In this document: positions 31,051 to 61,971 of the stretch, in pieces
Position numbering within the stretch: the first letter of the stretch is position 1
Layout: the number at the start of each line of letters is the position of its first letter
Source of the DNA: Klebsiella phage K64-1
DNA length: 64,000 nucleotides
Direction: 5' to 3' (one strand)
Sequence record: AB897757.1
Notes under the pieces: generated by a model
What the model was told of the DNA's origin: nothing
What the model saw: the letters and a program-made list of their open reading frames with translations, nothing else
Database searches by the model: none
Program-made: the position numbers and the translations under genes

Positions 31051-31315
31051 ACATTTTAATAGAATACAATTAATCACCCAACTTCTACAAATGGTTGATG
31101 ACACATTTGATGAATTAAAAAATAATCTTATGAATAAGAAAATCAAATGTAAGGTATATATGAATGATGGTGATTATTTCGATATGCGAGAAGTTGAAGT
31201 AACTGGAATTGTTACTAATATTACTTTATATGAATATGATCTAACTATTACAGTGAAAATCGACGAAGGTCGTGAATATTACGTTTGTAATCAACATATT
31301 GAGGTGGTTGAATGA
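31028..31315 (+). CDS. hypothetical protein
   Basis: ORF of 95 aa. Confidence 0.4.
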   Translation: MRYIWMNEHFNRIQLITQLLQMVDDTFDELKNNLMNKKIKCKVYMNDGDYFDMREVEVTGIVTNITLYEYDLTITVKIDEGREYYVCNQHIEVVE

Positions 31316-32457
31316 GTTTAGTAGAAATCTATAATGATTTAATGAATTTAGTACAAAATAATGAAGCATTTGAATATAAAGATCAGCGTTCAATTGGTGG
31401 TGGTTTGTATAGAATCTTTTCTTATCGAATGGCCTCATATACTGATTTCTGTGAACCTAATGCCAAAGAAACACGAGGTTCAATGTGGGAAATCAATGAA
31501 GATGGTACTATGATTCGTTGTGCAGCCCGTACTATGAATAAATTTTTTAACGCATATGAAAACCCATTCACAATGTTTGATAAAAATATGCTTAGTACTG
31601 AAATTGAAGTGGCGATGGATAAACGAGACGGTTCTATTATCAGTACTTTCAAGGATAATGACGGAATTATTCGTTGTAAATCTCACACTTCTCTATCTTC
31701 AGAACACGCAATTAATAGTAATGCTATCATGCGTCCTGGTTCTAGTTTATATCAATACGTAGAAGAAGCTGAACTTCAACAATATACCGTGAACCTCGAA
31801 TATACTTCACCTGAATATCGTATTGTATTGCCATATCAGAGCGAGAAACTGACTGTATTGAACGTTCGTCATCGAATCACTGGTGAACTACTGTGTGGTG
31901 AAAAACTGCGTCAGAAGTTTCCTATGCTCGCTATGCGTAGCACTAATATGATAAATGGTCAGAACATTGCAAGTAATTTTCCAATGCGTACTACAGTACT
32001 TGAAACGGTGGAAGCAGTAAAAGGAATGCGAGACATTGAAGGATTTGTGGCAGTACTGAAAGATGGCACAATGTTTAAAATTAAAACAGATTGGTACTGT
32101 GCTTTGCATTTCAATAAGGATAGTATTAATGTTGATTCTAGACTTTACGAATCAGTGCTACAAGGTGCAAGTGATGATTTAAGGCAAATGTTCTCTAATG
32201 ATCAGTATTGTCTTGATAAGATTAAAAGGATGGAAGATTTAGTATTCAGTACTTATAATTCTTTTGAAAAATTTGTTAATGATTTTTACAATGAATTTAA
32301 ACATTTAGAACGCAAAGAATATGCACTAAAAGTACAGAAACTTCTACCAAAAGAATTAAATCATCAGGGTTATGCTTTCTCTTTGTATAACAATAAACCG
32401 TTTGATTTAAAGGAAAACATGATCAAATACAGCAAAGAAGTATTAAAAGATTTCTAA
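31312..32457 (+). CDS. rnlA: RNA ligase 1 (T4 RnlA-type)
   Basis: ORF of 381 aa containing 'YRIFSYRMASYTDFCEPNAKETRGSMWE', 'NPFTMF', 'GFVAVLKDGTMFKIKTDWY' and 'GASDDLRQMF'. These line up with T4 Rnl1 blocks (YRIFSYNYASYSDW / ECRGIMFE / GYVAVMKDGSHFKIKSDWY / GASDDLKAMY). Confidence 0.9.
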   Translation: MSLVEIYNDLMNLVQNNEAFEYKDQRSIGGGLYRIFSYRMASYTDFCEPNAKETRGSMWEINEDGTMIRCAARTMNKFFNAYENPFTMFDKNMLSTEIEVAMDKRDGSIISTFKDNDGIIRCKSHTSLSSEHAINSNAIMRPGSSLYQYVEEAELQQYTVNLEYTSPEYRIVLPYQSEKLTVLNVRHRITGELLCGEKLRQKFPMLAMRSTNMINGQNIASNFPMRTTVLETVEAVKGMRDIEGFVAVLKDGTMFKIKTDWYCALHFNKDSINVDSRLYESVLQGASDDLRQMFSNDQYCLDKIKRMEDLVFSTYNSFEKFVNDFYNEFKHLERKEYALKVQKLLPKELNHQGYAFSLYNNKPFDLKENMIKYSKEVLKDF

Positions 32458-33644: not shown

Positions 33645-34589
33645 ATGCCAACAATCACATTAACAGTTGGACTTCCCGGATGTGGCAAGACTACATGGGC
33701 TGTTGAAGAAGTTCGAAGATCTAAAAGTAAAACAGTAAACATCAACCGTGATGATATGCGAGAAAGCATGGCTGGTTCTCATGAGAATTATAAGTTCAAA
33801 GATGATAATGAGAAGTACATAGACGCTATGCAAATTGCAGCAGCAGATACAGCAGCAAAGAATAAGTGGAATATTATTATTTCAGATACCAACCTAAAGT
33901 TATCTATCCGAAAGAAATGGAAAGATTGGGCTAAAGCCAATGGCTATGATTACAAAGAAAAGAATTTCTTTGATGACTTTGTAGCAAAAAGTACTTCAGG
34001 TGCAGATGTTCATCAGTACTTTAAAATTAAAGAATTTGTTAAACAATGCAAATACTATAATTTACTTCGATATAAATCAGTACCGGAATCGGTAATTGAT
34101 ACAATGGCAGATTCTTATTTGTATAGTACTATGCCAGTTCCTTCTATTCAGAAAGATTCGATGTACGATTTTAGTACTGAATATATCATTGTTGATATTG
34201 ATGGTACTTTAGCACATAGGGGAAATCGCAACCCATATGATGAAAGTACTGTACTGGAAGATACACCAGATCTTGAAGTTATTCGTTCAGTACTTGCTGA
34301 AGTGAACCATCATAAACGAAAGGTTATTATCATGAGTGGTCGTCATGAAACTTGTGCAAAAGACACTCGTTTGTGGCTTCATGAAAATGGAGTTCCATTT
34401 GAATATCTTTTTATGCGTTCAGAAAATGATAATCGCCCTGATGATGTGGTAAAATATGAATTGTACATGAAACATGTTGCACCATATTATAATGTTGTTA
34501 AAGTTTATGATGACCGACAACAAGTGTGTACGATGTGGCGTAAATTACTGAAATTGAAAGTTTTTCAAGTTGATTTTGGTAATTTTTGA
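33645..34589 (+). CDS. pseT: polynucleotide 5'-kinase/3'-phosphatase (T4 PseT/Pnk-type)
   Basis: ORF of 314 aa with the N-terminal P-loop 'LTVGLPGCGKTTWA' and 'NINRDDMRE', and the C-terminal HAD phosphatase block 'IVDIDGTLA ... DDRQQVCTMWRKL'. It is colinear with T4 Pnk (ILTIGCPGSGKSTWA ... NINRDDYRQ ... VIFDVDGTLA ... DDRTQVVEMWRRI). Confidence 0.9.
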   Translation: MPTITLTVGLPGCGKTTWAVEEVRRSKSKTVNINRDDMRESMAGSHENYKFKDDNEKYIDAMQIAAADTAAKNKWNIIISDTNLKLSIRKKWKDWAKANGYDYKEKNFFDDFVAKSTSGADVHQYFKIKEFVKQCKYYNLLRYKSVPESVIDTMADSYLYSTMPVPSIQKDSMYDFSTEYIIVDIDGTLAHRGNRNPYDESTVLEDTPDLEVIRSVLAEVNHHKRKVIIMSGRHETCAKDTRLWLHENGVPFEYLFMRSENDNRPDDVVKYELYMKHVAPYYNVVKVYDDRQQVCTMWRKLLKLKVFQVDFGNF

Positions 34590-37944: not shown

Positions 37945-38691
37945 ATGAGACATTATTTACAAGTAACAGTACCGGATGAAAAGGAATTATATATTGTTGG
38001 TGATATTCATGGTAATGCAAGACTGTGGGATTTAACTAAAAAAGAATTTGGAATCACTGATAATGATGTAGTATTCAGCCTAGGTGATATTGTGGATCGT
38101 GGTAAAAATAATTCCAAATTACTATTTGAATTTCTTTTTCAAGACAATCGTTATATGATTAACGGTAATCACGAATCCATGCTCGTTGATGGATTGACTA
38201 ATCGTGAATGGTATCATTGTCATATGAGTAATGGTGGAGACAAACTATACGAAGAACTTGGTCATACTGGTGTAGAATTCTTTGCTCAGTACTTAAAAGA
38301 TTTACCCATGATCATAGAAATACATTATCGTGGTATGAAAATTGGATTAGTACACGGTTGCTGTCCTTTACGTTATACAGACTGGAACGAATTTTTAACT
38401 GATAGTTCAACGTTATCTCCAAAAATTGTTGAAGAATGCATTTGGTCCAGAAATGATTTTGACTATGCAAAACAAAACAACACTTATCATTCACCAAGAA
38501 TTTCCAATATTGATTATGTCATTTCAGGACATTCCCCTGTATTTGATCCACTAATTTATGGAAACCGATGGTGGATTGATTCACAATTTAGTACTGGAGA
38601 TTTGACTGTAGTACAACCAAACAGTGGAAAACTGAGATATTTTAGAAGAGAAAAGGATGCATATTCTTTTGATCGTAAACGTGGTTATTAA
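37945..38691 (+). CDS. Ser/Thr protein phosphatase, metallophosphoesterase (lambda-PPase/ApaH-like)
   Basis: ORF of 248 aa with the canonical calcineurin-fold motifs 'VGDIHGN', 'LGDIVDRG' and 'NGNHE'. Confidence 0.8.
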   Translation: MRHYLQVTVPDEKELYIVGDIHGNARLWDLTKKEFGITDNDVVFSLGDIVDRGKNNSKLLFEFLFQDNRYMINGNHESMLVDGLTNREWYHCHMSNGGDKLYEELGHTGVEFFAQYLKDLPMIIEIHYRGMKIGLVHGCCPLRYTDWNEFLTDSSTLSPKIVEECIWSRNDFDYAKQNNTYHSPRISNIDYVISGHSPVFDPLIYGNRWWIDSQFSTGDLTVVQPNSGKLRYFRREKDAYSFDRKRGY

Positions 38692-38703: not shown

Positions 38704-39141
38704 ATGAAACTATATCTATTAGTTAACAGTTATTGTACTGGTAAACAAGCATATATTCAGGCAATGCACGCTGGTTTTGATCTACTCATGAAATACCATG
38801 ATGATTCAACCTATGGTACCAAATGTGTTGATATGATCACCGATTGGTACAATAATCATAAAACAGTAGTAGTACTGAATGCTGGTAATTCAGATATGCT
38901 TCATTATTATGAGACCATTCTTGACGCACAACAAACAGTTCCATACGATGTTTTCTGTGAACCCGGACTGGATGGTGCCATGACTGCAATTGCAGTACTC
39001 GCCAGTACTGAAATGGTGGAAGATATGAAACACATGCGTGATGGTTTATATGATGATGTTCCTGGATTTTTTGGTGTAAAATATGGTTGTGAATTAGAAG
39101 AAATCCTAACTGACATGAGTACCATGAGAACTGCGGATTAA
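38704..39141 (+). CDS. hypothetical protein
   Basis: ORF of 145 aa with RBS aaggataaaATATG. Confidence 0.45.
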   Translation: MKLYLLVNSYCTGKQAYIQAMHAGFDLLMKYHDDSTYGTKCVDMITDWYNNHKTVVVLNAGNSDMLHYYETILDAQQTVPYDVFCEPGLDGAMTAIAVLASTEMVEDMKHMRDGLYDDVPGFFGVKYGCELEEILTDMSTMRTAD

Positions 39142-43370: not shown

Positions 43371-44195
43371 ATGAAAGTAACAGGAAAGGGAAATCAGAAG
43401 GATGACCTATTTCATATAGATAAGTTTTTAAATACTGGTAAATTTTTACCAGGAACAATATTTTCTCGTTCAACTACTAGACAAAAGAACAATAAAGGTG
43501 TAATATCATATCCATATTGGAATTATAAATGCCCCAAATGTTCACATGATGAATTCGTTGAACATGGTTTATGTTCTGGTGTATTCGAAGGTGAATGTCA
43601 AAAACTAAAATTAGGAAAACGTAATTGTAGATGTGCTCCGACATATAGGTGGACACAAGAACAACGAGAATATCAAATACAAAAAGAAATCGATGAACGT
43701 GGTCTAGAAAATTATTTTATTGGATGGGTTGATCCTGAAGGATATAAAAATAATGGAAGTAAAATTATAATTGGATGTATAAATTCAGATGATGATGGTA
43801 CCCAACATAAAAGTTATACTATAGCAATAAATGATTTTCTCCATGGACATAAAGGTTGTGCTAAATGTGCCGGTCAAACACAAAAACATGCATATATAAA
43901 TGTTGTATATAATGAAAATAAACCAGTAGCTATAAAATTTGGAATTGCAAATGCACCACACATAAGGATTGAATTTCAAAATAGTAAAAATTTATATAAG
44001 ATGGTTCAAACGCACATTTACAAATTTTTCAGTACTGAACAATGTAAAGATGCTGAACGATATTGTAAATCAATTTATAAAAATGTTTTAACAAAAGAAC
44101 AACTATTTGATGGTTATACTGAAACCACACTATTGGAAAATATAGAAAATATTATTCAAATCTATGAAAAATATGGTGGAATCAGAACAAAATAA
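43371..44195 (+). CDS. Cys/His-rich (zinc-finger-like) protein of unknown function
   Basis: ORF of 274 aa with two similar modules, 'YKCPKCSHDEFVEHGLCSGVFEGECQ' and 'IGCINSDDDGTQHKS...HGHKGCAKCAG'. The RBS is aaggatttgtATG. Confidence 0.5.
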   Translation: MKVTGKGNQKDDLFHIDKFLNTGKFLPGTIFSRSTTRQKNNKGVISYPYWNYKCPKCSHDEFVEHGLCSGVFEGECQKLKLGKRNCRCAPTYRWTQEQREYQIQKEIDERGLENYFIGWVDPEGYKNNGSKIIIGCINSDDDGTQHKSYTIAINDFLHGHKGCAKCAGQTQKHAYINVVYNENKPVAIKFGIANAPHIRIEFQNSKNLYKMVQTHIYKFFSTEQCKDAERYCKSIYKNVLTKEQLFDGYTETTLLENIENIIQIYEKYGGIRTK

Positions 44196-44198
44196 TGA

Positions 44199-44226
44199 TT
44201 GACATTTTATTTGTTTATGTTACAAT
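44199..44226 (+). promoter_or_regulatory. sigma70-like promoter TTGACA-N16-TACAAT
   Basis: TTGACA at 44199-44204 and TACAAT at 44221-44226, upstream of the ClpP-like gene. Confidence 0.45.
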
Positions 44227-44264
44227 GTCTCTATAAATTGATTAATAAACACGAGGAAATACAA

Positions 44265-44966
44265 ATGCTAGATCAATTCACATTCGGTGGTTACTCATCC
44301 GGTACACAAATTACTAACTACAGTGTTCCAATTGTGGTAGAAAAAGAAAATGGGCAAGAGCGTTCTTATGACTTGTCTTCTCGTATGATGAAAGAACGTA
44401 TTATTTTCATCGATTCTGATTTCAATCCACAAATGGCACACATTCTAAAAATGCAACTACTTTGGCTTGACTCACAGGATGATGCACCAATTGTATTGTA
44501 TGTATCATCACCTGGTGGTTCTGTTCATGATGGTCTAGGTATTGCTGACGTTGCGAAATACTGTCGCTCTCCAATTCGTACTATTGTAATGGGATACGCC
44601 GCCAGTATGGGTGCGTTTACACAAAGTACAGTAGGTACTCCAGGTCATCGTTTTGCTGGTGAATCTGCTATGATTATGTGTCACCAAGTATCTTCAGGCA
44701 CTAAAGGTCTAATTACTGATCAGAAGATTGCTCTAAAGCATACTGAACGCCTTAATGAACTACTGATGAAACGCATTGCTGAAAGTGTTGGTGTTTCATA
44801 TGAACAACTACTTGAAGATGCTGACCGTGACTTGTGGCTAAATGCTGAAGAGTCACTAAATTATGGTACTAAAGGTTTCATTGATGGTATTATTCTTAGT
44901 GCTAAAAATGAAAAAGGTGAATTCCTAGTTCGTCGTCGCGGTGGCGTAGAAGAGTGGGTCAAATAA
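44265..44966 (+). CDS. ClpP-family serine protease (ATP-dependent Clp protease proteolytic subunit-like)
   Basis: Start chosen at the ATG 'MLDQFTFGG' with RBS gagga. 'GYAASMGAF' aligns to ClpP G(Q)AASMGA with the catalytic Ser, and 'MCHQ' to the catalytic His. The whole protein is colinear with ClpP. Confidence 0.8.
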   Translation: MLDQFTFGGYSSGTQITNYSVPIVVEKENGQERSYDLSSRMMKERIIFIDSDFNPQMAHILKMQLLWLDSQDDAPIVLYVSSPGGSVHDGLGIADVAKYCRSPIRTIVMGYAASMGAFTQSTVGTPGHRFAGESAMIMCHQVSSGTKGLITDQKIALKHTERLNELLMKRIAESVGVSYEQLLEDADRDLWLNAEESLNYGTKGFIDGIILSAKNEKGEFLVRRRGGVEEWVK

Positions 44967-46747: not shown

Positions 46748-47271
46748 TATATCATTTAACTGAAGAACAAAGTACTGAATACTTTAACAATTTAGAAGCG
46801 GTTCTGGACTATCATAAAAAAATTCATACAGATGCATGTAATATTTTAAATTCTTGGTATACTTTTTATAAATTGAATTTTAATAACCTACCGTGGTATA
46901 TGAAATTTGGTGTTTTATCATATAAAAAGTTTTTAGCATCTATTGCTAACGATACTGGGTTAGAAATAAGAAATAAAATGTATCAATATGTAACACCACG
47001 CAATATGTCTGGATGGGTTTATAAATTAAAAATTAATAAAATCCAAAAATTAACTGGTATTGATTTAAGTACCGAAAGTATAAATTTGGTAATTCATGCA
47101 ATGCATTTTGGTTTACAATATGATAGTATGTATGATTTGTATAGAACATTAGAAAAAATAAAAAAATATGGTTCAATTCCATATACTATTGATGAATATG
47201 ATTTGAAAATTTTTGAACATGTATCATTTTTAGTACAACATTATAATATAGAGAAATATAATGAAGCATAA
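46744..47271 (+). CDS. hypothetical protein
   Basis: ORF of 175 aa. Confidence 0.45.
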   Translation: MIYHLTEEQSTEYFNNLEAVLDYHKKIHTDACNILNSWYTFYKLNFNNLPWYMKFGVLSYKKFLASIANDTGLEIRNKMYQYVTPRNMSGWVYKLKINKIQKLTGIDLSTESINLVIHAMHFGLQYDSMYDLYRTLEKIKKYGSIPYTIDEYDLKIFEHVSFLVQHYNIEKYNEA

Positions 47272-47731
47272 AACATGGTTAAATATTGCTAAAGCGGTTG
47301 CCGAGGAAAGTAAATGTATTTCACACAAAGTTGGTGCAGTAATTGTAAAGAATAACAGGATTCTCAGTACTGGGTATAATGGTACAAGTTCTGGAGCAGT
47401 TAATTGTTGTGATGCGAATAGTCATTTAATTCATAATAATGAATTTCAAAATTGGGTATCAGATGAAGCTAAACATGAACATCATGAGTGGAGTAATATT
47501 CATGAAATTCACGCAGAAATGAATGCTTTATTATATAGCTCTCCACAAGAACGACAGGGTGCAACTCTTTATAGTACAATGCAACCCTGCTATACCTGTT
47601 CTAAATTAATTGCAGGGAGTGGTATTACTAATGTAATTTATGAAAAAGAATACCCACGTACACCACCCGAAGCAATTGAAGTTTTAAAAGATGCTGGTAT
47701 TACAGTTAATAAATTATCAGATTTGGAATAA
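47261..47731 (+). CDS. cd: dCMP deaminase (cytidine/deoxycytidylate deaminase zinc-binding family)
   Basis: ORF of 156 aa with 'HEIHAEMNALLY' (the H-A-E zinc and catalytic motif) and 'PCYTCSKLIAGSGI' (PCxxC). In T-even phages cd sits in a similar neighbourhood. Confidence 0.85.
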   Translation: MKHKTWLNIAKAVAEESKCISHKVGAVIVKNNRILSTGYNGTSSGAVNCCDANSHLIHNNEFQNWVSDEAKHEHHEWSNIHEIHAEMNALLYSSPQERQGATLYSTMQPCYTCSKLIAGSGITNVIYEKEYPRTPPEAIEVLKDAGITVNKLSDLE

Positions 47732-48574: not shown

Positions 48575-49171
48575 ATGTTTATTGTACTAAAAGAATTTTT
48601 ATATAATACATTAATTGCTTTTTCACTTATTTTCCCATCACATGATATTCAACAGAATGTAACTGTAAACGATAGTAACGTGTTAATTTTTAATACTAAA
48701 ATAAACGACGAATCAGTACAAAGAGCGGAAACATTATATAAGAAATATAAGTACAAAACCATTTCTATTACCTCACCTGGAGGTGATGTGAATTCTGGTT
48801 TTGAATTAGCAGTCTTTGCTTCTGACCATAATATTAAAGTTAATGTACCGAAGTACTGTGCAAGTGCATGTACAGTTATATTTTTTGCTGCTGATAAACA
48901 AAACAGAGTTATGGATAAAGATGCTATTATTGCTATTCATAATGTTTCGGTTGTGGCTAATAATGATATTTCTGGTAATGAAACCATATCTATCAATACT
49001 GCCATGGATTTAATGAAAGATACATCAGAAATTGTAGCAGCTATGTATAGTTTATATGCATATGTTGGTATTCCAGGTGAAATCCTGATGAGAACAAGCA
49101 CTATGCACGGAGCTGATTCTTATCAAATAACAAAAAAACAACTCCAAATGTGGGGCATTTTAGAAAAATAA
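48575..49171 (+). CDS. secreted or membrane ClpP/S49-like serine peptidase-like protein
   Basis: ORF of 198 aa with an N-terminal hydrophobic segment, 'ITSPGGDVNSGFELAVFA' (the ClpP/SppA SPGG motif) and 'YCASACTVIFFAADK', where Ser sits at the catalytic position. Confidence 0.5.
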   Translation: MFIVLKEFLYNTLIAFSLIFPSHDIQQNVTVNDSNVLIFNTKINDESVQRAETLYKKYKYKTISITSPGGDVNSGFELAVFASDHNIKVNVPKYCASACTVIFFAADKQNRVMDKDAIIAIHNVSVVANNDISGNETISINTAMDLMKDTSEIVAAMYSLYAYVGIPGEILMRTSTMHGADSYQITKKQLQMWGILEK

Positions 49172-49174
49172 ATC

Positions 49175-49202
49175 TGTACAAGAATATCATTTGTGATATA
49201 AT
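49175..49202 (+). promoter_or_regulatory. promoter with extended -10 (TTGTGATATAAT)
   Basis: TG at 49194-49195 and TATAAT at 49197-49202, with a weak -35. It lies upstream of natV. Confidence 0.4.
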
Positions 49203-49258
49203 AATTAAACAGAGAGTGATGTAGCTCTCTTTTATATAGCTTAGGGAGTACTAAGACA

Positions 49259-50323
49259 ATGAAAGAAAAAGTTTATGTATATATTGGACGTTTCCAAATT
49301 CCACATATTGGTCATGAAGAAGTCCTCAAACATGCGATCAAAATTGCAGATCGTGTTATCATTCAGGTCGGTTCAAGTGAACTGGCTCGTGATCCAAAAA
49401 ATCCATTCACGTTTGAAGAACGTAAGTCAGTACTAGAAGAAATTACAAAACGTGTAGCTCAAGATGAATGGAATAAAGGTCGAACTGTTAAAATCGATAT
49501 TATGCCATTACATGATTATGTATATGATAATAATGCATGGCTAAAAGAAGTACAGGATAATGTTAAAACATGTACTTCAAGTAATGATATTACTATTACC
49601 GGTTGTCGTAAAAATGGTGATACTAGTACTGAATATCTTAACTATTTTCCTCAATGGAAAAATGACTTCATTAACGAAGTACAAAGTAATGCAAAGGGTA
49701 CTATTAGTAGTACTGAACTACGCGAAGCTTTCTTTGTCTCTGGTAAAGTTCCAACTGAATTTGTTTCAAAAGAAACAACAGAATTTCTAGAAAATTTTGT
49801 CAGTACTAAACCGGATGTATTCGATAATCTTATTAAAGAATATGAATTCATTAATCGTTATATTGAACAAATGAAAGAAGCACTACCTTATGATATTCCA
49901 TTTTTAACAGCAGATAACATCGTCGTCAGTTGTGGTCACGTTCTTCTTATTCGTAGAAGAACATATCCAGGAAAAGGATTATTAGCTATGCCGGGTGGAT
50001 ATTTTCAATGTTGGGATGATAAAGACCAGATTGATACTGCAATTCGTGAATTAAAAGAAGAAACTAAAATCGATGTACCTGAAAAAGTGCTTCGTGGTAA
50101 TATTGTTAGTGCAACAGACTTTACTGACATGAATAGAAGTCTTCGCTGGCGAATTCTAACTAAAGCTGTTCATATTCAATTACCTGACGTCACTCTACCT
50201 AAAGTTAAAGGAAGTGATGATGCAGAAAAAGCTCAGTGGATTCCACTAAGCGATGTAGAAAAATATCGTGATCAGTTCTTTGAGGACCATTATTCTATTT
50301 TGGCTTCAGTACTGAAACTATAA
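49259..50323 (+). CDS. natV: bifunctional NMN adenylyltransferase / Nudix ADP-ribose pyrophosphatase (NatV/NadM-like)
   Basis: ORF of 354 aa. The N-terminus 'IGRFQIPHIGHEEVL' carries the HxGH nucleotidyltransferase motif. The C-terminus 'GGYFQCWDDKDQIDTAIRELKEETKI' is the Nudix box Gx5Ex7REUxEExGU. Confidence 0.85.
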   Translation: MKEKVYVYIGRFQIPHIGHEEVLKHAIKIADRVIIQVGSSELARDPKNPFTFEERKSVLEEITKRVAQDEWNKGRTVKIDIMPLHDYVYDNNAWLKEVQDNVKTCTSSNDITITGCRKNGDTSTEYLNYFPQWKNDFINEVQSNAKGTISSTELREAFFVSGKVPTEFVSKETTEFLENFVSTKPDVFDNLIKEYEFINRYIEQMKEALPYDIPFLTADNIVVSCGHVLLIRRRTYPGKGLLAMPGGYFQCWDDKDQIDTAIRELKEETKIDVPEKVLRGNIVSATDFTDMNRSLRWRILTKAVHIQLPDVTLPKVKGSDDAEKAQWIPLSDVEKYRDQFFEDHYSILASVLKL

Positions 50324-50398
50324 AGAATTATTACACAGAGTAATAATAAATCAGAGAACGTAGTAGTTCTCTAACTTAAACTAAGGGAGTCTTAGAAA

Positions 50399-51871
50399 AT
50401 GAAAAACGTAAATCCAAATGTAAACTTTATTTTAAACTGCGACAGCTATAAGATTCAACACAGAAAAATGCTCAAAAAGCATGTTGATGGTTATTACAGT
50501 ACTATTGTACCTCGTAAAAGCTCTCCACATAGCAACCATGTAGTTGTGGCTGGTTTGCAATACACAATTAATACCTATATCAATATTCAGATTACCAAAG
50601 AAGATGTTGATGAAGCTGAAATTGAAATTCGTGAACAAGGTTCACGTTTTGATAGAACTATTTGGGATAAAATCGTCAATGAGTTTGGTGGTAAAGTTCC
50701 AGTAAAAATTAGTGCTATTAAAGAAGGTACAGTTGTTCCAGTTCAATCAGTAGTTTGTGTTGTTGAAGCTAAAGATGAGTTTGCATTTTTGGCTAGTTAT
50801 ATTGAAACTTGTATTCAACGTGGTGTATGGTATAGCAGTACTGTAGCATCTGAATGTCGTGCAATGAAAAAAATTCTTGCTGATGTAATGCAACGTCATG
50901 CTGGTCATAAGAATGTAGATTATCATTTCCACAACTTTGGAGATCGTAGTGCAACTTGTTTTGAACATGCATATGTAGCTGGTATGGCACATGCAATTAT
51001 GTTCAATGGTTCGGATAGTTTAACTTCAAATCGTTATATTAAAGCTCACTATAATACTACCAAAGCGTATCTGAGTTCAGTTGACGCTACTGAACATAGC
51101 GTTATGTGCAGTAATAGTGATGCTGAACATCGCAATGATTATGGTGCAGCAGTAATGGCGGTAGATCATTGGGAAGAACAAGTTACAATGTGGGAAGAAG
51201 ATGGATTAGGTGTACCAGTAACTTCATGTGTTATTGATACTTATAATGATTATCGCTTTGTCCGTGACTTTATCGGTACTAAATTAAAAGACCGTATTGT
51301 TGAAATTGGCAAACGAGGTGGTCGCTTTGTTCTTCGTCCTGATTCACGAATTCCTAAAGAAATTTGTATTGATGTAATCGAAATTCTAATGGAAAAGTTT
51401 GGTTATACTATTAACGAACATGGTTACAAAGTACTACCACCATATATTGGAGTAATTCAAGGTGATGGTGTTAATTTCGATAGTATTCATGAAATTCTAG
51501 ATATTCTTGATGAAAAGAAATTATCCCTTGAAAACATTGTATTTGGTTGTGGTACCAAATTGGTTAACCCTGAACGTGGTCGTGATCTTTATAGTTGGTC
51601 AATGAAAGGTACTGCACAACATGTCGAAGATGAACGTGAATGGCAAGACCTATTCAAAGATCCAGCAGGTGAACCAGGCAAACGTTCACATAAAGGGCGT
51701 GTAGTAACCTGGAAATGTAAAGTATCTGGTAAGATTTTTGTTGATCGTGATGATCTTGATAAAATTAATCATTTCATTGAAAATCTACTTGTACCAATGT
51801 ATGACTGCGGTAAAATTATGAATTTCAGTACTTTTGATGAAGTTCGTGAGCGTGCTAACGCAGGTATCTAA
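50399..51871 (+). CDS. nadV: nicotinamide phosphoribosyltransferase (NAMPT/NadV)
   Basis: ORF of 490 aa with the N-terminal 'NFILNCDSYKIQH' (NAMPT 'ATDSYKVTH' block). Its length and downstream blocks such as 'GVIQGDGVN' (NAMPT 'IRPDSGD/IQGDG') also fit. Confidence 0.85.
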   Translation: MKNVNPNVNFILNCDSYKIQHRKMLKKHVDGYYSTIVPRKSSPHSNHVVVAGLQYTINTYINIQITKEDVDEAEIEIREQGSRFDRTIWDKIVNEFGGKVPVKISAIKEGTVVPVQSVVCVVEAKDEFAFLASYIETCIQRGVWYSSTVASECRAMKKILADVMQRHAGHKNVDYHFHNFGDRSATCFEHAYVAGMAHAIMFNGSDSLTSNRYIKAHYNTTKAYLSSVDATEHSVMCSNSDAEHRNDYGAAVMAVDHWEEQVTMWEEDGLGVPVTSCVIDTYNDYRFVRDFIGTKLKDRIVEIGKRGGRFVLRPDSRIPKEICIDVIEILMEKFGYTINEHGYKVLPPYIGVIQGDGVNFDSIHEILDILDEKKLSLENIVFGCGTKLVNPERGRDLYSWSMKGTAQHVEDEREWQDLFKDPAGEPGKRSHKGRVVTWKCKVSGKIFVDRDDLDKINHFIENLLVPMYDCGKIMNFSTFDEVRERANAGI

Positions 51872-51879
51872 TATATTTT

Positions 51880-51910
51880 GGAGAGTCATTATGGCTCTCC
51901 ATTCTTTTTA
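51880..51910 (+). terminator. rho-independent terminator after nadV
   Basis: Sequence ggagagtc-atta-tggctctcc followed by attcttttt. Confidence 0.5.
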
Positions 51911-52117
51911 ATTAAAGTAATAAAGGTATATAATGTGCTTATTGGTTTTAAAATAGTTATTATCTTCTTTATATGGTTTATTACATATCAAATAATTGAA
52001 GAAATCAGTACTAAATTCTCTTCAAATAATTTCTTAGTAGACGTTTGTTTATTATCCATTGCGGTACTGGGATTTTTGATCATACCGGTTATATTTTCAT
52101 ATTTTATATGAAAAATG

Positions 52118-52146
52118 TTGACATTTTTTTCTTCATAAGATATAGT
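52118..52146 (+). promoter_or_regulatory. sigma70-like promoter TTGACA-N17-TATAGT
   Basis: TTGACA at 52118-52123 and TATAGT at 52141-52146. Confidence 0.5.
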
Positions 52147-52179
52147 ATAGATATTAACAATTAATAACGGATATCAAAA

Positions 52180-52446
52180 ATGTTCCAACATCTTTTGGAT
52201 TTTTTCTGTACTGTAAACATTGAAAAACAAGCTAAGTTCATTATTGTAGAACTGGTCTGGTTTTACTTAGGTGGCCTGGTAATTACACTGTGTGCATTTT
52301 TACATAGTGATATTAATCTTGGTATTTCCTATGCAAAAAGTGAGAATAAACCATCATTACTACTCAAGTTTATTAGATGTTTATTGTACTTAGCGTATAT
52401 CTTATATATTGTTGGATTTTTTGGTGTATATTATGTAATTCATTAG
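52180..52446 (+). CDS. small membrane protein with 2-3 TM helices
   Basis: ORF of 88 aa that is hydrophobic, 'FIIVELVWFYLGGLVITLCAFL ... LLYLAYILYIVGFFGVYYVI'. Confidence 0.45.
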   Translation: MFQHLLDFFCTVNIEKQAKFIIVELVWFYLGGLVITLCAFLHSDINLGISYAKSENKPSLLLKFIRCLLYLAYILYIVGFFGVYYVIH

Positions 52447-52456
52447 GAATTAATCG

Positions 52457-53194
52457 ATGATTAGTACTAAATTCATTAAAAAAGCTGGTGATAAAAGATT
52501 ACTAATCATTTCTGGAAATGGATTGTCAATGGATAGTGGTTTTGACTTATATGACATTCCTGATAATTTTCAGATAAATGATGTATGTAATATTGCCAGT
52601 TTAGGTACAAAATATCACGTAGTTCATTCTTATTATAATACTCTTAGAGTTAAATTAAAAGATATTGAACCAAACGAAATGCATTACTATATTAAATCAT
52701 TACAAGATGAGTATGGTGATAACTTTTTACACATGACCAGTAATGTAGATGATTTATATACAAGAATTGGTGGCACTGAATTAAAATTACATGGTAATAT
52801 TAAAGAGGTTATAGAAAACTACACCGCTGATGGTTCTGAAATAGAAATAAAAGAATTAGGTTATGAACCATATATTCCATGTAGTGGTATTTTTTCTAAA
52901 CCAGGTGTTACATTAATTGGTGAGTTCCATAGTTATTTTTATGGATATAAAATCCCAATTTATGAAGAACGAAATGAAATACTAAAATCATTAAATGAAA
53001 ATGATACTGTAGTAGTAATTGGAAGTTCTGATTCAGTACTGAAATGGAGCCATTTAATAAATGAGAAATGTTACACAGTACTAATCAATATAAGAAAAAA
53101 TGAAAACGATCATCGTTTCAATGAACGAATTTATAAATCTTGTTCCAAATCTGTATTAGATTTATCTGGAATAATTTCAAAAAGGATGGTATAG
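52457..53194 (+). CDS. Sir2 (sirtuin/CobB)-family protein, divergent
   Basis: ORF of 245 aa. 'LLIISGNGLSMDSGFDLYD' aligns to the sirtuin 'VLTGAGISAESGIPTFR' block. 'PNEMHYYIKSLQDEYGDNFLHMTSNVDDLYTRIGGTELKLHGNI' aligns to CobB '[45 protein letters not shown]', which contains the catalytic His. 'VVVIGSSDSV' aligns to 'IAIGTSGHV'. The zinc ribbon is absent. Confidence 0.65.
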   Translation: MISTKFIKKAGDKRLLIISGNGLSMDSGFDLYDIPDNFQINDVCNIASLGTKYHVVHSYYNTLRVKLKDIEPNEMHYYIKSLQDEYGDNFLHMTSNVDDLYTRIGGTELKLHGNIKEVIENYTADGSEIEIKELGYEPYIPCSGIFSKPGVTLIGEFHSYFYGYKIPIYEERNEILKSLNENDTVVVIGSSDSVLKWSHLINEKCYTVLINIRKNENDHRFNERIYKSCSKSVLDLSGIISKRMV

Positions 53195-53748
53195 TGGAAA
53201 AAATTGATTTCGGTACAAGAAGTACCAGAGCCGATTTTGCTTTTTGTTGGATTTTTGCCCGAGATTGTACTCCATACTCTGGATATGATGATCAACTTGG
53301 AATTGATAAAGTAAATTTAGTACTAGCACAATTACGTTTTGATGGTTGCATTGGGGCGTGTGGTGGTATGGTGGAAAGTGATGATAATTCATTAGAAGAA
53401 GCTGTACAGCGTGAAGTACTGGAAGAAATTGGTTATACTGTTGATTTAACACATTTAAAACCACTTCTAAGCTTGCGTTTACCATCAGGCAGCCATTGCC
53501 ATAGCTATAGTTATGAAGTTGATTACAATGAATTACAAAGCATTAGAGATGGTGCTTATAGAGGAATACATTTCAATCCAGAATGTGCTGGTGTGAATCT
53601 TTTACATATTTCAAGATACACAAAAGGTTATGGAAACGAATGTGGATATAATGTATTATTAGAACAACACTGGAGTGGTACATCAAAAGAAGAATTTATG
53701 TACCTTGTAGAGACAGAAAATCTATTAATTAGTTATTTGAAGGAATGA
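53195..53748 (+). CDS. Nudix hydrolase (NudE-like)
   Basis: Start taken as GTG immediately after the Sir2 stop, with RBS aaaggatgg. The Nudix box is 'GGMVESDDNSLEEAVQREVLEEIGY'. Confidence 0.7.
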
Positions 53749-54080
53749 TAATGGGATACCAGTTATTTTTAGATGATATTCGTTACCCATCAAAATATTA
53801 TAGTACTGAAATGGTACTATGTAGATCTTATGATGAAGCTGTCAAATATGTAGAAGAACATGGAATTCCAGAATTTATCAGTTTTGACCATGACCTTGGA
53901 GATACTTCTGATAATGAAAAAACTGGTTATTCATTTGCTAAATTTTTGATTGATTATATGATTGATAATGGCATCAGTAATGAATTCAAATATAATATTC
54001 ATAGCTCAAATCCAGTAGGTGCAGATAATATCGATTCTTATCTAAAAGCTGGTTTTAAATATCTAAGAGAAAATATGTAA
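53745..54080 (+). CDS. cyclic-phosphate-processing receiver (CPR)-like domain protein
   Basis: ORF of 111 aa. 'QLFLDDIRYP', 'ISFDHDLGD', 'KTGYSFAKFL' and 'IHSSNPVGADNI' follow the order of the CPR domain consensus (xLDDeR.P ... slDHDLG ... tGyd ... HSaNpvg) as I recall it. Confidence 0.4.
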   Translation: MIMGYQLFLDDIRYPSKYYSTEMVLCRSYDEAVKYVEEHGIPEFISFDHDLGDTSDNEKTGYSFAKFLIDYMIDNGISNEFKYNIHSSNPVGADNIDSYLKAGFKYLRENM

Positions 54081-54397
54081 TGAAGATTGGTAATCATATT
54101 TTTGCATGTTTTATTAGTATATGTATCTGTTCGGTTGTTGCTGGATTGTGGTATAATTCAATGAGGTACGAAAAACACAATATTAGATATAATTCAGTTA
54201 AAGTTGTTGGTATTGGTCAATGTTCTAATAAAAGTTCGAGTACCGAGTGTTCTTTTTGGTACGAAGATGGAAATTCTACCCAATTTGCAATTTCAGATAA
54301 TCCAGTTTCAATTGGTCAAATTGTTTATCAAATGTGCTGGACAGAAAAGGCTCGTGGTGATAGATGTTATGTAAATTACCAAACGAGTAAGCAGTAA
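54080..54397 (+). CDS. small membrane or secreted Cys-containing protein
   Basis: ORF of 105 aa with the N-terminal hydrophobic segment 'IFACFISICICSVVAGLW'. Confidence 0.4.
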   Translation: MKIGNHIFACFISICICSVVAGLWYNSMRYEKHNIRYNSVKVVGIGQCSNKSSSTECSFWYEDGNSTQFAISDNPVSIGQIVYQMCWTEKARGDRCYVNYQTSKQ

Positions 54398-54474
54398 AAA
54401 AGTTGTATTTTAGCAGTTCTAAATACATATGAGAACAACATAATATTCTCCCCAACTAAGATAAGGAATATCTT

Positions 54475-55914
54475 ATGAAAAAATATACTATTGACACTAA
54501 CGTAGTACTTTCTGATCCAAATGCAATCACTGCGTTTGATGGTACATCTGTTATTCTTCCATTTAAAGTACTAGAAGAACTAGATTCTATTAAAAGTCGC
54601 AATGTTGACGTATCTCGTGATGCACGTTTTGCAATCCGAAATATTGATGCAATTCTAGCTGATGCAACTTATGAAGAGATTAGAAATACTGGTGTTGATA
54701 TTTCAAAAGTACATACGAATATGAGTGCTTCCAGTAAATTATTTGTAATTACCGATGAAGAAGCAGAAGCTTTAATTCGTACACAAGATAAAGAAGAAAA
54801 ATTAGTCACTCTTCTAAAAAGTACAGTTCCTGATGATAAAATCATTTTAGTAGCACTAGCAACTGATTCAGTACTAGTTACAAAAGATATCAATATGCGT
54901 CTAAAAGCACTATCTTATGGTGTTGAGGTTCAAGATTATCGTCATGATGTAGTACTAGAAGATAGTGATCTTATTCATGTCGGTCAACATCATCTTGACA
55001 TTGATTTTTGGGAAATGTTTAAAGATATTCCTGATGCAGAAATTAAATCCAATCAAATTGGTAGAAAATTGTATCACTATATCAGTACTGAACTATTAAA
55101 AGATTCGTTACCAACAAATATGTATATTGGTGATTATTTGTATGATAATTCTGATGTATTGTTTGTATATGATGGTATTGTTGAGCTTGATGATTCAGAA
55201 GGTAATGCAATTGAAGGTGAGTTTTTTGTATTTCAAGATGTAGGACAATCGGTTGCTTTACGTGCTAAAGTTTGGGATATTAAATCAAAAAATATCCAAC
55301 AATCATTAGCAATTAATAGTATTCTCGATCCTGACGTACATCTTACTGTACTTCTTGGTTCTGCTGGTACTGGTAAAACACTAATTACAATTGCAAGTGC
55401 ACTTGAATTAGTACTAGAGAAGAAAAAATATTCTCGTATTATTTTCTCAAAAACTCAAGATTCACAGTTTGAAGATATTGGTTTCCTACCAGGATCAGAA
55501 AGTGAAAAAGTAATTCCTTTCTGTGGTGCAGCAATTGATGCATTAGAGTTTTTACATCGTGATGACCGCGATCCACAAGGTAGTATTGAAGAAATTATGA
55601 AACGTAATGTTATTCAATTTAAAGCATTGAACTTCGTTCGTGGTCGTAGTTTCACTGATACAATTCTTGTTATCGACGAATTCCAAAATATTTCACCCGC
55701 ACAAGCGAAGACAATCTTGACACGTGCTGGACAAAACTGTAAAGTAATCATTATGGGAAACCTATCACAAATTGATAATAAATTTATTAGTGCAGTGAAT
55801 AGTGGTTTAACATATGTTACTGAAAAATTTAAAGATTGGTCCGGTTGTCGTATCATCGAGTTAGAAGGTGTTGTGCGTTCACCATTAGCCGAATTTGCTG
55901 AGAAAAATATGTAA
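54475..55914 (+). CDS. phoH: PhoH-family ATPase with an N-terminal PIN domain (PhoL/YlaK-type)
   Basis: ORF of 479 aa. The N-terminus 'KKYTIDTNVVLSDP' is a PIN-like D-rich start. The Walker A is 'LLGSAGTGKTLITIA' and the Walker B is 'ILVIDEFQN'. RBS is aaggaatatcttATG. Confidence 0.85.
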   Translation: MKKYTIDTNVVLSDPNAITAFDGTSVILPFKVLEELDSIKSRNVDVSRDARFAIRNIDAILADATYEEIRNTGVDISKVHTNMSASSKLFVITDEEAEALIRTQDKEEKLVTLLKSTVPDDKIILVALATDSVLVTKDINMRLKALSYGVEVQDYRHDVVLEDSDLIHVGQHHLDIDFWEMFKDIPDAEIKSNQIGRKLYHYISTELLKDSLPTNMYIGDYLYDNSDVLFVYDGIVELDDSEGNAIEGEFFVFQDVGQSVALRAKVWDIKSKNIQQSLAINSILDPDVHLTVLLGSAGTGKTLITIASALELVLEKKKYSRIIFSKTQDSQFEDIGFLPGSESEKVIPFCGAAIDALEFLHRDDRDPQGSIEEIMKRNVIQFKALNFVRGRSFTDTILVIDEFQNISPAQAKTILTRAGQNCKVIIMGNLSQIDNKFISAVNSGLTYVTEKFKDWSGCRIIELEGVVRSPLAEFAEKNM

Positions 55915-55921
55915 TAATATT

Positions 55922-55950
55922 TTCGGTACTGAACAACACTCAGTACCGAA
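55922..55950 (+). terminator. terminator hairpin built from the GTACTG motif
   Basis: Sequence ttcggtactg-aacaacact-cagtaccgaa followed by atttaaaat. Confidence 0.5.
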
Positions 55951-55974
55951 ATTTAAAATAATTAAAAAAAACAT

Positions 55975-56003
55975 TTGACATATCAATCGTTGTATCCTAT
56001 AAT
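55975..56003 (+). promoter_or_regulatory. sigma70-like promoter TTGACA-N17-TATAAT
   Basis: TTGACA at 55975-55980 and TATAAT at 55998-56003. Confidence 0.55.
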
Positions 56004-60949: not shown

Positions 60950-61606
60950 ATGAATATTAAAACAACAGCAGATAAGTACTGGTTCATTATGAACCACCCA
61001 AAATTTGTAAATAAAAATTACATTGTACCAAAAATCGAAATTGAACCACATAACGTATGTCCACAAACCAACAGAATTGAATCGTATGAATATTTGAATA
61101 CAAAAGTCCAGTACTGGATTGAATTTTATATCCCAGTGCAAGAAGATGGGAAATGGGAAATTGCACATGATTACAAACTCGATTGTGGTGGCGACACCAT
61201 AGATGAAGCAATTGACTGCTTATATAATTCAGTACTAAATGAATATGGAAATTATACACAAGAAGAACTTGACAAAAAGGAGGATGAAGTATATAATTAC
61301 AACAAATCCAAGTTTGGTAGTGCAACAATGTCATATATTTTATCTAAAATTCATGAAGACATGTTTGAATACGTAAATGATAAAATTTTGCCAGATGAAG
61401 AAGCGGAATGCTATAATCATAACACGGTTGGTTATTATGAAAAAAAAATTAAAGAATTAAAAGGAACTTTAAATTCATTGATCGAATTCAAAAGAAATTC
61501 ACCAAAAGAAATGCACAAAGTAATTGACAAAGATATAAAAAACGTAGAACATGACATTTTTGCGAATGAAATGAGTATTAAATTTATGGTGGATTTGGAT
61601 CTATGA
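60950..61606 (+). CDS. hypothetical protein
   Basis: ORF of 218 aa. Confidence 0.5.
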   Translation: MNIKTTADKYWFIMNHPKFVNKNYIVPKIEIEPHNVCPQTNRIESYEYLNTKVQYWIEFYIPVQEDGKWEIAHDYKLDCGGDTIDEAIDCLYNSVLNEYGNYTQEELDKKEDEVYNYNKSKFGSATMSYILSKIHEDMFEYVNDKILPDEEAECYNHNTVGYYEKKIKELKGTLNSLIEFKRNSPKEMHKVIDKDIKNVEHDIFANEMSIKFMVDLDL

Positions 61607-61971
61607 ATAAAGATCTTTCAAAATTAGTTGAAGACCTACGGAATATGCCGAAAATTGAACAAGTTGGTTCGTTTAAACGTTTCTTAGTTATTGCACGTGC
61701 ATTAGATAAAAAGGGACGTGTACTCAGTACCAAAACCAATTCATACACACAAACACATCCAGTACAGAAGAAGTTTGCAGTTAGGGCTGGACGGTGTGAA
61801 GCTGTATGGCTCCATGCAGAAATTCGTTGTTTGTTAGCTGCAAGAAAAGATGTTCATACATTACTAATTGCCAGAATTAACAAAGAAGGTCTTCCTGTTC
61901 CCGCAAAGCCATGTTCTGTTTGTGAACTGGCTATAAAAGAATATGGTGTAAAAAGGGTGATTTATACATGA
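61603..61971 (+). CDS. cytidine/dCMP-deaminase-fold protein (second CDA-family gene)
   Basis: ORF of 122 aa with 'WLHAEIRCLLAAR' (the H-A-E motif) and 'PCSVCELAI' (PCxxC), the minimal zinc-deaminase signature. Confidence 0.45.
   Translation: MNKDLSKLVEDLRNMPKIEQVGSFKRFLVIARALDKKGRVLSTKTNSYTQTHPVQKKFAVRAGRCEAVWLHAEIRCLLAARKDVHTLLIARINKEGLPVPAKPCSVCELAIKEYGVKRVIYT

Follow-up and report, generated by a model that had tools for sequence, protein, structure and literature searches.

A predicted sirtuin-centred operon for RNA-end or ADP-ribose processing beside the NARP2 gene pair of Klebsiella phage K64-1

Do genes for the synthesis of nicotinamide adenine dinucleotide (NAD+) and genes for a sirtuin, a Nudix hydrolase and a receiver-like domain form a single system when they lie next to each other in a phage genome, and what would such a system do? 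The question is raised by a locus of Klebsiella phage K64-1 (sequence record AB897757.1), of which we analysed 64,000 nt, referred to here as the window. The first-pass annotation of this DNA had read positions 49175-54080 as one island, in which the salvage enzymes NatV and NadV and the products of the genes downstream might together process ADP-ribose-derived immune signals, or deacylate or ADP-ribosylate host targets while buffering NAD+. Our comparisons suggest a different arrangement. The explanation that we consider probable, although not strongly so, is that NARP2, a pair of enzymes that rebuilds NAD+, lies beside an independent operon that is predicted to be centred on a sirtuin and to use NAD+ in the processing of RNA ends or of ADP-ribose.

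NatV and NadV are predicted to form a first transcription unit (unit 1, 49175-51901), and the genes for an 88-aa membrane protein, Sir2, a Nudix hydrolase, cREC, a 105-aa membrane protein and PIN-PhoH a second one (unit 2), since the transcription signals of the two are separate in the window and the terminators keep the same two positions, directly after NadV and after PhoH, in Serratia phage BF, whose NadV is about 55% identical. An extended -10 promoter, located in the 87-nt gap 3' of a ClpP-like gene, and an intrinsic terminator delimit unit 1, and unit 2 has a separate promoter close to the consensus (Table 1), as had been proposed in the first-pass annotation. These promoter matches are unlikely to be noise, because 14 of the 16 promoter-like sites that score 11 or 12 of 12 positions in the whole window lie on the coding strand. 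The genes of unit 2 are tightly packed. The 88-aa gene stops 10 nt 5' of the Sir2 start, the Sir2 stop and the Nudix start share one base, the Nudix and cREC genes overlap by the four bases ATGA, and the cREC stop overlaps the start of the 105-aa gene, which leaves all five genes (52180-54397) overlapping or separated by no more than 10 nt. Neither a strong promoter nor a strong terminator was found in the 77-nt spacer between the 105-aa gene and PIN-PhoH, and the hairpin directly 3' of the PhoH stop is the probable end of the unit. A promoter matching the consensus at 12 of 12 positions follows this hairpin (55975-56003).

Domain and profile searches confirm all six open reading frames (ORFs) between 49259 and 54080, with the expected domains, and the calls of Sir2 (PF02146), Nudix (PF22327) and cyclic-phosphate-processing receiver (PF20274) are correct. 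Four details of the first-pass annotation need revision. It did not have the 58-aa ORF between the unit 1 terminator and the unit 2 promoter or the terminator-like hairpin in the NatV leader (Table 1). It placed the start of the Nudix gene at an upstream TTG, whereas the start is the GTG that overlaps the Sir2 stop by one base; and its gene order for the downstream unit stands, but not the end of that unit at 54080, as the unit runs on through the 105-aa protein and PIN-PhoH to the hairpin at 55921-55951.

Comparison with related phages indicates that the two units can exist apart. The relatives compared include the metagenomic contigs L005-L007, L016 and L017 and the phages CBB, BF and phAPEC6. 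The order Sir2, Nudix, cREC, membrane protein of about 100 aa and PIN-PhoH is kept in jumbo phages that share only 33-64% sirtuin identity with the window, with PIN-PhoH in the identical position in every relative examined. Nudix and cREC form one fused protein in the lineage of GAP32, CBB and BF. Variable genes occupy 0.3 to 4 kb at the junction of the two modules, depending on the relative. Asteriusvirus (phAPEC6, MK817115.1 250401-264949; contigs L017 and L018) keeps the run of Sir2, Nudix, cREC, membrane protein and PhoH with no NatV or NadV in the syntenic slot, so the modules appear separable in evolution, and none of the 121Q-like E. coli jumbo phages is among the strong NadV matches. 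Sir2 is solitary, beside a topoisomerase gene, in the KVP40-type phage ValKK3, and Nudix is solitary in Aeromonas T4-like phages. From Asteriusvirus and these two solitary cases we reject an obligatory operon coupling of NARP2 and the sirtuin, and the two units probably do not form one obligatory system. The earlier suggestion that the locus does more than plain salvage is reasonable, but the single module that it implied gives way to separate units, separable in Asteriusvirus, and it overlooked a published RNA-repair reading, which is discussed below.

Unit 1 corresponds in sequence to NARP2 and has already been catalogued. NatV aligns along its full length (residues 5-349, E 1e-63) with 2QJO, the structure of a bifunctional NMNAT/Nudix enzyme, and contains the HxGH (GRFQIPHIGH) and ISSTxxR (ISSTELR) motifs and the Nudix helix RELKEET; its score against the NCBIfam PRK05379 family is 282 bits, under the equivalog cut-off of 397. 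NadV aligns over its full length with human NAMPT (E ~1e-65), and the alignment keeps the equivalents of the residues that we take to form the human active site (F193/R196, D219, H247, R311/D313, R392/K400). The Nmnat partner, NatV, adjoins NadV, and a domain scan of the window found no Prs-like (Adps) gene flanking NadV. Consistent with this arrangement, Table S2 of Osterman et al. 2024 (bioRxiv 10.1101/2024.02.11.579819) lists the NadV of K64-1 (AB897757_00513), RaK2 and Muenster as 'Nmnat-associated', and the NadV of the window is identical to the start of the K64-1 sequence shown there. The identification of NatV and NadV as the two-enzyme salvage pair is therefore upheld by domains, motifs and this listing. 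The same work introduced the name NARP2 for the Nampt and Nmnat of KVP40, which it showed to abolish defence by Thoeris and DSR2. The K64-1 pair shares with KVP40 NARP2 (Lee et al. 2017; Osterman et al. 2024) the same enzymes, domain architecture, intact motifs and adjacent, co-oriented genes, although its NadV is only about 30% identical to the NadV of T4-like and Vibrio phages. From this orthology and the intact motifs we infer NAD+ synthesis and anti-defence activity for the pair. NadV would join nicotinamide and phosphoribosyl pyrophosphate to give nicotinamide mononucleotide, which the N-terminal domain of NatV would adenylylate to NAD+, and the Nudix domain of NatV would split ADP-ribose. 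NAD+ would thereby be rebuilt during infection and NAD+-depleting immunity blunted, as shown for the KVP40 homologues.

The untranslated leaders of NatV and NadV (49211-49258 and 50350-50398) are near-twins, each with a 7-bp CAGAGAG...CTCTCTG-type hairpin followed by a 5-bp GGGAG-loop hairpin before the ATG; with a looser search pattern, the exact motif turned up nowhere else. In the NatV leader the 5-bp hairpin shows the Shine-Dalgarno sequence GGGAG in its loop, and the 7-bp hairpin before it may terminate transcription of the upstream gene or serve as an attenuator or a processing site. Rfam gives no riboswitch or known RNA element at gathering thresholds in the whole window, these leaders included, and between 48400 and 56200 yields one chance match to a miRNA model (E 0.77). 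Against RaK2, DNA identity is 99-100% in the NMNAT half of NatV but falls to about 55-85% in the Nudix half, where amino-acid changes are clustered (window 49859-50398; L001 5168-6193). An HNH/EDxHD homing endonuclease gene directly follows NatV in RaK2, Muenster and KP13-7 and is absent from the window and from RCIP0023, and farther relatives have an unrelated 170-190-aa ORF at this site. The 3' part of NatV looks like a tract of homing-endonuclease co-conversion or recombination.

The sirtuin is the central protein of unit 2, and its family bears directly on the function of the unit. A profile of the phage-clade sirtuins matches E. coli CobB best (E 3e-57), followed by Sir2Af1 and Sirt5, and the AlphaFold model (pLDDT 89.9) superimposes on CobB with a TM-score of 0.75-0.8. 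No PADLOC defence family matches the sirtuin at E <= 0.01. Together, these matches and the lack of a PADLOC match identify the protein as a true sirtuin derivative and not an NADase of the ThsA or DSR type. Defence-type SIR2 proteins (ThsA, DSR1/2, SIR2-HerA, SIR2-Ago) are rejected as candidates on the same grounds, the best matches in both sequence and fold being CobB and Sirt5, and unit 2 contains no SLOG, HerA, Ago or similar fusion or partner for the sirtuin. The sirtuin, DSR and ThsA clades had all been named beforehand as clades with which to compare this protein, and only the first, in the form of a CobB-like sirtuin, fits.

We aligned 23 sequences of the sirtuin clade, including the closest relative of the window protein (P0002) and two distant cellular members (P0037 and P0040). 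The kept positions are G20, G22, S27, G28, T94-x-N96-x-D98-D99, H112-G113, G155-E156 and G189-x-S191, among which the catalytic His (H112-G113), the TQNID-like motif (T94-S-N96-V-D98-D99) and the Rossmann glycines are invariant. With CobB and the class III/U sirtuins (1S5P, 6RXJ, Sirt5, Sir2Af1) the phage sirtuin shares, besides the catalytic His and the TQNID-like motif, its Rossmann core. Nevertheless, the phage sirtuin differs from CobB-class sirtuins in lacking the zinc-binding cysteines, in having about 8 extra residues behind the GE motif, and in its score of 63 bits, below the CobB equivalog cut-offs of 220-320. In the phage clade, the stretch from the catalytic His to the KP(G/N)V motif contains no CxxC pairs, whereas the distant cellular members P0037 and P0040 retain the zinc-ribbon cysteines.

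The window sirtuin departs from its own clade in the cofactor loop, GAGxSxxSGIxxFR, which reads GNGLSMDSGFDLYD in the window (52514-52570, residues 20-38) and has a short deletion. GAG is changed to GNG, the Phe to Tyr and the near-invariant Arg to Asp; P0002 alone is similar (Tyr-His), and the other 21 of the 23 sequences retain GAG and FR. The first-pass annotation had held that the loss of catalytic motifs would count against its assignment, and such a loss is found in part, with the catalytic His and the TQNID-like motif kept, the loop Arg lost and GAG replaced by GNG. The change may mean an altered or weakened use of NAD+, and it is possible that the sirtuin of K64-1 and RaK2 uses a different co-substrate or acts as a non-catalytic binder. 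Close relatives differ at too few codons for dN/dS to be informative; the window sirtuin gene, for example, differs from that of RaK2 by five synonymous codons and no non-synonymous codon. About 970 of some 50,700 phage records contain a homologue of the sirtuin, among them those of T5-like, rV5-like, PVP-SE1-like and phi92-like phages and phages of Vibrio and Campylobacter.

The partners of the sirtuin point towards RNA. The Nudix protein belongs to the NUDT16/X29 RNA-decapping family and is not close to the ADPRase family: it scores 58.5 bits against PF22327 (cut-off 27), matches the structures of NUDT16 and of the Xenopus X29 RNA-decapping enzyme with E 3e-10 to 2e-7, and has an intact catalytic helix REVLEEIG (REUxEE), which aligns with RELREELG of NUDT16. 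The cREC protein, for which Klebsiella phage K64-1 has a counterpart of 100% identity, shows the features that define its family, namely a receiver-like fold, a conserved acidic active site and no histidine-kinase partner. PIN-PhoH combines a PIN_4 domain (residues 4-156, E 1e-21) with a PhoH domain (residues 269-473, E 7e-44) that has Walker A GSAGTGKT and Walker B VIDEFQ motifs, and scores 163 bits against the NCBIfam PhoH2 equivalog (cut-off 680). PhoH2-type proteins are RNA helicases and RNases (PMC7824862, citing Andrews and Arcus). The intact Nudix helix is shared with NUDT16 and X29, and the PIN_4 and PhoH architecture with mycobacterial PhoH2, although the clades found here are phage-specific and divergent. 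The two membrane proteins of the unit are also found in relatives. A 37% identical homologue of the 88-aa protein lies 5' of Sir2 in L005, and proteins 37-44% identical to the 105-aa protein occupy the same interval between cREC and PIN-PhoH in L005-L007, a position common to all jumbo relatives examined.

This combination of genes has been described before. The cREC family was defined, and tied to RNA ligases and NAD+ systems, by Iyer, Anantharaman, Krishnan, Burroughs and Aravind in 2021 (PMC7824862). A neighbourhood of 'sirtuin + 2H + Nudix + cREC + PIN endoRNase', exemplified by Serratia phage BF, was reported from jumbo phages by Iyer, Burroughs, Anantharaman and Aravind in 2022 (PMC9503650, section 3.7.3), who proposed that the sirtuin removes 2'-phosphates from RNA, as KptA/Tpt1 does, and that the substrates of 2H, cREC and Nudix are cyclic phosphates or ADP-ribose>p; these authors describe cREC as experimentally uncharacterised. 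Experimental work on phage sirtuins or on cREC did not turn up in our literature search. BF carries an orthologue of the window locus, with NatV and NadV directly upstream there too. The sirtuin, Nudix, cREC and PIN endoRNase that characterize this type-1 neighbourhood lie in one co-oriented run in the window (52457-55914), in the same order as in BF, including the membrane protein and PIN-PhoH, and with terminators in the same positions. The window differs from BF in lacking the 2H/Acb1-like gene, in having Nudix and cREC as separate proteins where BF has a fusion, and in the degenerate cofactor loop of its sirtuin, which is canonical in BF-type sequences.

The missing gene encodes, in BF, in GAP32/CBB-type phages and in other relatives, a 148-aa protein of the 2H superfamily that matches the Pfam family Acb1 (anti-CBASS, E 1.2e-15) and lies just 5' of Sir2. 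It may be a cyclic-nucleotide nuclease or an RNA cyclic phosphodiesterase. The records of CBB and BF annotate it as a 'structural protein' and an 'RNA ligase', respectively.

A second gene neighbourhood connects the same families with RNA repair. In the unrelated Vequintavirinae rV5 and PVP-SE1, an operon encodes an Rnl1-type RNA ligase, cREC and Sir2, and its neighbours encode a polynucleotide-kinase-like protein and a calcineurin-like phosphoesterase. Because this operon pairs both Sir2 and cREC with an RNA ligase, it ties them independently to RNA repair. It is the type 2 neighbourhood of PMC9503650. Its sirtuin (about 32% identical) belongs to the clade of the window protein and is encoded together with a member of the same cREC family, but, unlike in the window, no Nudix, PIN-PhoH or NARP2 is adjacent. 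The Rnl1 and Pnkp genes of the window lie 17-20 kb upstream of unit 2. No tRNA genes, which would favour tRNA repair, were found in the window.

For unit 2, every step of the mechanism that we favour is inferred. Acting like Tpt1/KptA, the sirtuin would take ADP-ribose from NAD+, with release of nicotinamide, and attach it to a phosphate at an RNA end, such as a 2'-phosphate. cREC would open a cyclic phosphate, either that of the RNA (RNA>p) or that of the by-product ADP-ribose 1'',2''-cyclic phosphate, and Nudix would cleave free or RNA-linked ADP-ribose to AMP and ribose phosphate. PIN-PhoH would unwind and trim the RNA, whose ends would be sealed by Rnl1 and Pnkp. The proposed chemistry resembles that of Tpt1/KptA in the NAD+-dependent transfer of ADP-ribose to an RNA phosphate and in the release of nicotinamide and ADP-ribose 1'',2''-cyclic phosphate, a by-product that needs a cyclic phosphodiesterase. 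The folds are nevertheless unrelated (sirtuin versus ADP-ribosyltransferase), which limits the comparison to a functional analogy, and we know of no sirtuin that performs this RNA chemistry. A link to unit 1 would be metabolic and optional: NadV could plausibly recycle the nicotinamide released by the sirtuin, which is a sirtuin inhibitor. The full version of this model, in which the phage-clade sirtuin acts as an ADP-ribosyl- or 2'-phosphotransferase on the ends of RNA or other nucleic acids and heals defence-cut RNA with cREC and Nudix while NARP2 recycles the nicotinamide, is possible but in our view rather unlikely.

Several observations weigh against a predicted RNA-end or ADP-ribose processing operon beside NARP2. 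The chemistry ascribed to unit 2 derives solely from gene-neighbourhood association. The sirtuin of the window, with its loop Arg lost and GAG changed to GNG, may be weakly active or altered. Repair by T4-type Pnkp and Rnl1 leaves no 2'-phosphate, so a Tpt1-like step lacks an obvious substrate. The 2H/Acb1-like gene of the published neighbourhood was not found in the 64-kb window, where tblastn with the L006 and L007 proteins gave no match. The two membrane proteins of unit 2 are not explained by RNA repair, and the 105-aa protein in particular does not fit a purely cytoplasmic repair model. Finally, because the wider region from dCMP deaminase to GroES/TyrRS is syntenic across the whole lineage, the adjacency of NARP2 and unit 2 may be inherited and not functional.

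Close to the reading of the first-pass annotation, unit 2 could be an anti-defence module in which Nudix and cREC destroy ADP-ribose-derived or cyclic-phosphate messengers, such as the glyco-cyclic ADP-ribose (gcADPR) of Thoeris or cyclic oligonucleotides, while NARP2 restores NAD+. Unit 2 does adjoin a proven anti-defence pathway, the Acb1-matching 148-aa protein is found in the junction 5' of Sir2 in BF, GAP32/CBB-type phages and other relatives, and phage Nudix, Macro and NADAR domains were suggested to counter mostly soluble ADP-ribose signals (Iyer et al. 2022, PMC9503650). We nevertheless regard the destruction of messengers as improbable, given that it leaves no role for a NAD+-consuming sirtuin or for PIN-PhoH, that the Nudix is of the RNA-decapping NUDT16 type, that the Acb1-like gene was not found in the window, and that gcADPR cleavage is known for no member of these families; rV5-type phages, in which Sir2 and cREC recur beside a polynucleotide-kinase-like protein and an RNA ligase, also speak for RNA. 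The sirtuin alone might instead be a CobB-like, NAD+-dependent lysine deacylase that reprograms host or phage proteins, with Nudix clearing O-acyl-ADP-ribose and NadV removing nicotinamide (a NAMPT-sirtuin axis). This would agree with the CobB match of the profile and of the AlphaFold model, with the retained catalytic His, TQNID-like motif and Rossmann glycines, and with the GenBank records, which label the sirtuin a deacetylase. O-acetyl-ADP-ribose is moreover hydrolysed by Nudix hydrolases. A deacylase seems to us just as improbable as messenger destruction, since the phage clade has none of the zinc-ribbon cysteines by which true sirtuins shape their substrate cleft, the score of 63 bits is far from the CobB equivalog range, and the conserved association with cREC, PIN-PhoH and RNA ligases would be left unexplained. 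In addition, what we take to be the acyl-recognition Arg of the YxxR motif of CobB and Sirt5 aligns with a Leu, with a neighbouring Arg conserved.

There may also be no island at all, if the genes are neighbours by lineage synteny and the RaK2/K64-1-type sirtuin is a decaying or repurposed pseudo-enzyme. The synteny from dCMP deaminase to GroES/TyrRS, the separate promoters and terminators, the variable insertions at the junction, the Asteriusvirus genomes without NatV and NadV beside unit 2, and the Sir2 of ValKK3 alone by its topoisomerase gene are all in line with this view, as is the loss of the loop Arg and of GAG in the window and P0002. The overlapping genes of unit 2, the Nudix-cREC fusions and the independent pairing of Sir2 and cREC in Vequintavirinae argue, on the contrary, for functional coupling. 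The sirtuin ORF is intact, all its other catalytic positions are kept, and its only differences from RaK2 are synonymous, although these are too few to be conclusive. We hold a neighbourhood due to synteny, with a decaying or repurposed sirtuin, to be very unlikely, and continue to favour NARP2 next to an independent, predicted sirtuin-centred operon that would use NAD+ on RNA ends or ADP-ribose.

Table 1. Features of the locus, of the rest of the window and of related contigs. Positions refer to the window unless a contig is named; aa, amino acids.
Feature	Position	Strand	Remarks
Unit 1 promoter, sigma-70-type extended -10 (predicted)	49175-49202	+	TGTACA-16-TGaTATAAT
7-bp hairpin in NatV leader, then TTTTAT	49211-49230	+	-14.9 kcal/mol, z -2.4; terminator-like
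NatV/NadM, bifunctional NMN adenylyltransferase and Nudix (ADP-ribose pyrophosphatase type)	49259-50323	+	CTP_transf_like + NUDIX
Hairpin in 75-nt NatV-NadV spacer, then second Shine-Dalgarno-in-loop hairpin	50347-50378	+	
NadV, nicotinamide phosphoribosyltransferase (NAMPT)	50399-51871	+	NAMPT_N + NAPRTase
Intrinsic terminator closing unit 1	51879-51901	+	10-bp stem, -14.9 kcal/mol, z -5.3, U tract; tail TTCTTTTT
58-aa ORF, two hydrophobic segments	51935-52111	+	GTG start; between unit 1 terminator and unit 2 promoter; annotated in Muenster; no family match found
Unit 2 promoter, near-consensus sigma-70 (predicted)	52118-52146	+	TTGACA-17-TATAGT
88-aa membrane protein, first gene of unit 2	52180-52446	+	Two hydrophobic segments
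Sir2, phage-clade sirtuin	52457-53194	+	PF02146 E 2.7e-11; phrog_2162 E 2.5e-63
NUDT16/X29-like Nudix hydrolase	53194-53748	+	GTG start 53194; PF22327 E 1e-15
cREC (cyclic-phosphate-processing receiver) protein	53745-54080	+	PF20274 cREC_REC, E 1.9e-24
105-aa protein, N-terminal membrane anchor and C-terminal domain (4 conserved Cys)	54080-54397	+	phrog_14661
PIN-PhoH (PhoH2-type RNA helicase + PIN endoRNase), last gene of unit 2	54475-55914	+	
12-bp hairpin directly 3' of PhoH stop	55921-55951	+	-17 kcal/mol, z -7.1; U tract on + strand weak
Rnl1, T4-type RNA ligase 1	31312-32457		
Pnkp, polynucleotide kinase/phosphatase	33645-34589		
Calcineurin-like phosphoesterase and weak PTH2-like (peptidyl-tRNA hydrolase) match	37945-38691, 38704-39141		
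148-aa 2H/Acb1-like protein (relatives)	L006 7546-7992; L007 6920-7366; L009 7273-7719 (CBB_118); L015 5007-5453		

The window has about 30% GC and is transcribed almost wholly from the + strand. Elsewhere in it are two ClpP-related genes (44199-44966 and 48575-49171), with one strong Clp_protease match (E 2.5e-45); the second, directly 5' of the NatV promoter, encodes a divergent ClpP/SDH-like protease. A protein with a CapR homology domain is encoded at 43371-44195. Two genes have a cytidine/dCMP-deaminase fold, namely a clear dCMP deaminase (47261-47731) and a short, divergent one (61603-61971, E 1e-6).

The 5.2 kb around the locus are 96-98% identical to the Klebsiella jumbo phages RCIP0023, RaK2, KP13-7 and Muenster (genus Alcyoneusvirus), and most genes are already named in the GenBank records of RaK2 and Muenster (cytidyltransferase/NMNAT-Nudix, nicotinamide phosphoribosyltransferase, Sir2, Nudix, PhoH). 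Both modules have been described, and only minor local variants depart from the publications: the lack of the 2H gene, the unfused Nudix and cREC, the degenerate sirtuin loop and the absence of the homing endonuclease. The idea of RNA repair by the sirtuin was itself published in 2022, and only its experimental proof would be new. What keeps the locus interesting is the biochemistry of the phage sirtuin and cREC families.

NARP2 is a proven phage route against NAD+-depleting immunity, and its presence is useful to know in Klebsiella jumbo phages that are candidates for phage therapy, although it is not new. The operon of sirtuin, Nudix, cREC and PIN-PhoH is the more interesting half of the locus, and the window offers a compact test case for it, lacking the 2H gene and encoding Nudix and cREC as separate proteins, even if its sirtuin is atypical. 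If the proposed function is true, an RNA-acting sirtuin would be a new activity in a heavily studied enzyme family, and it would explain how large phages survive under RNA-cleaving defences.

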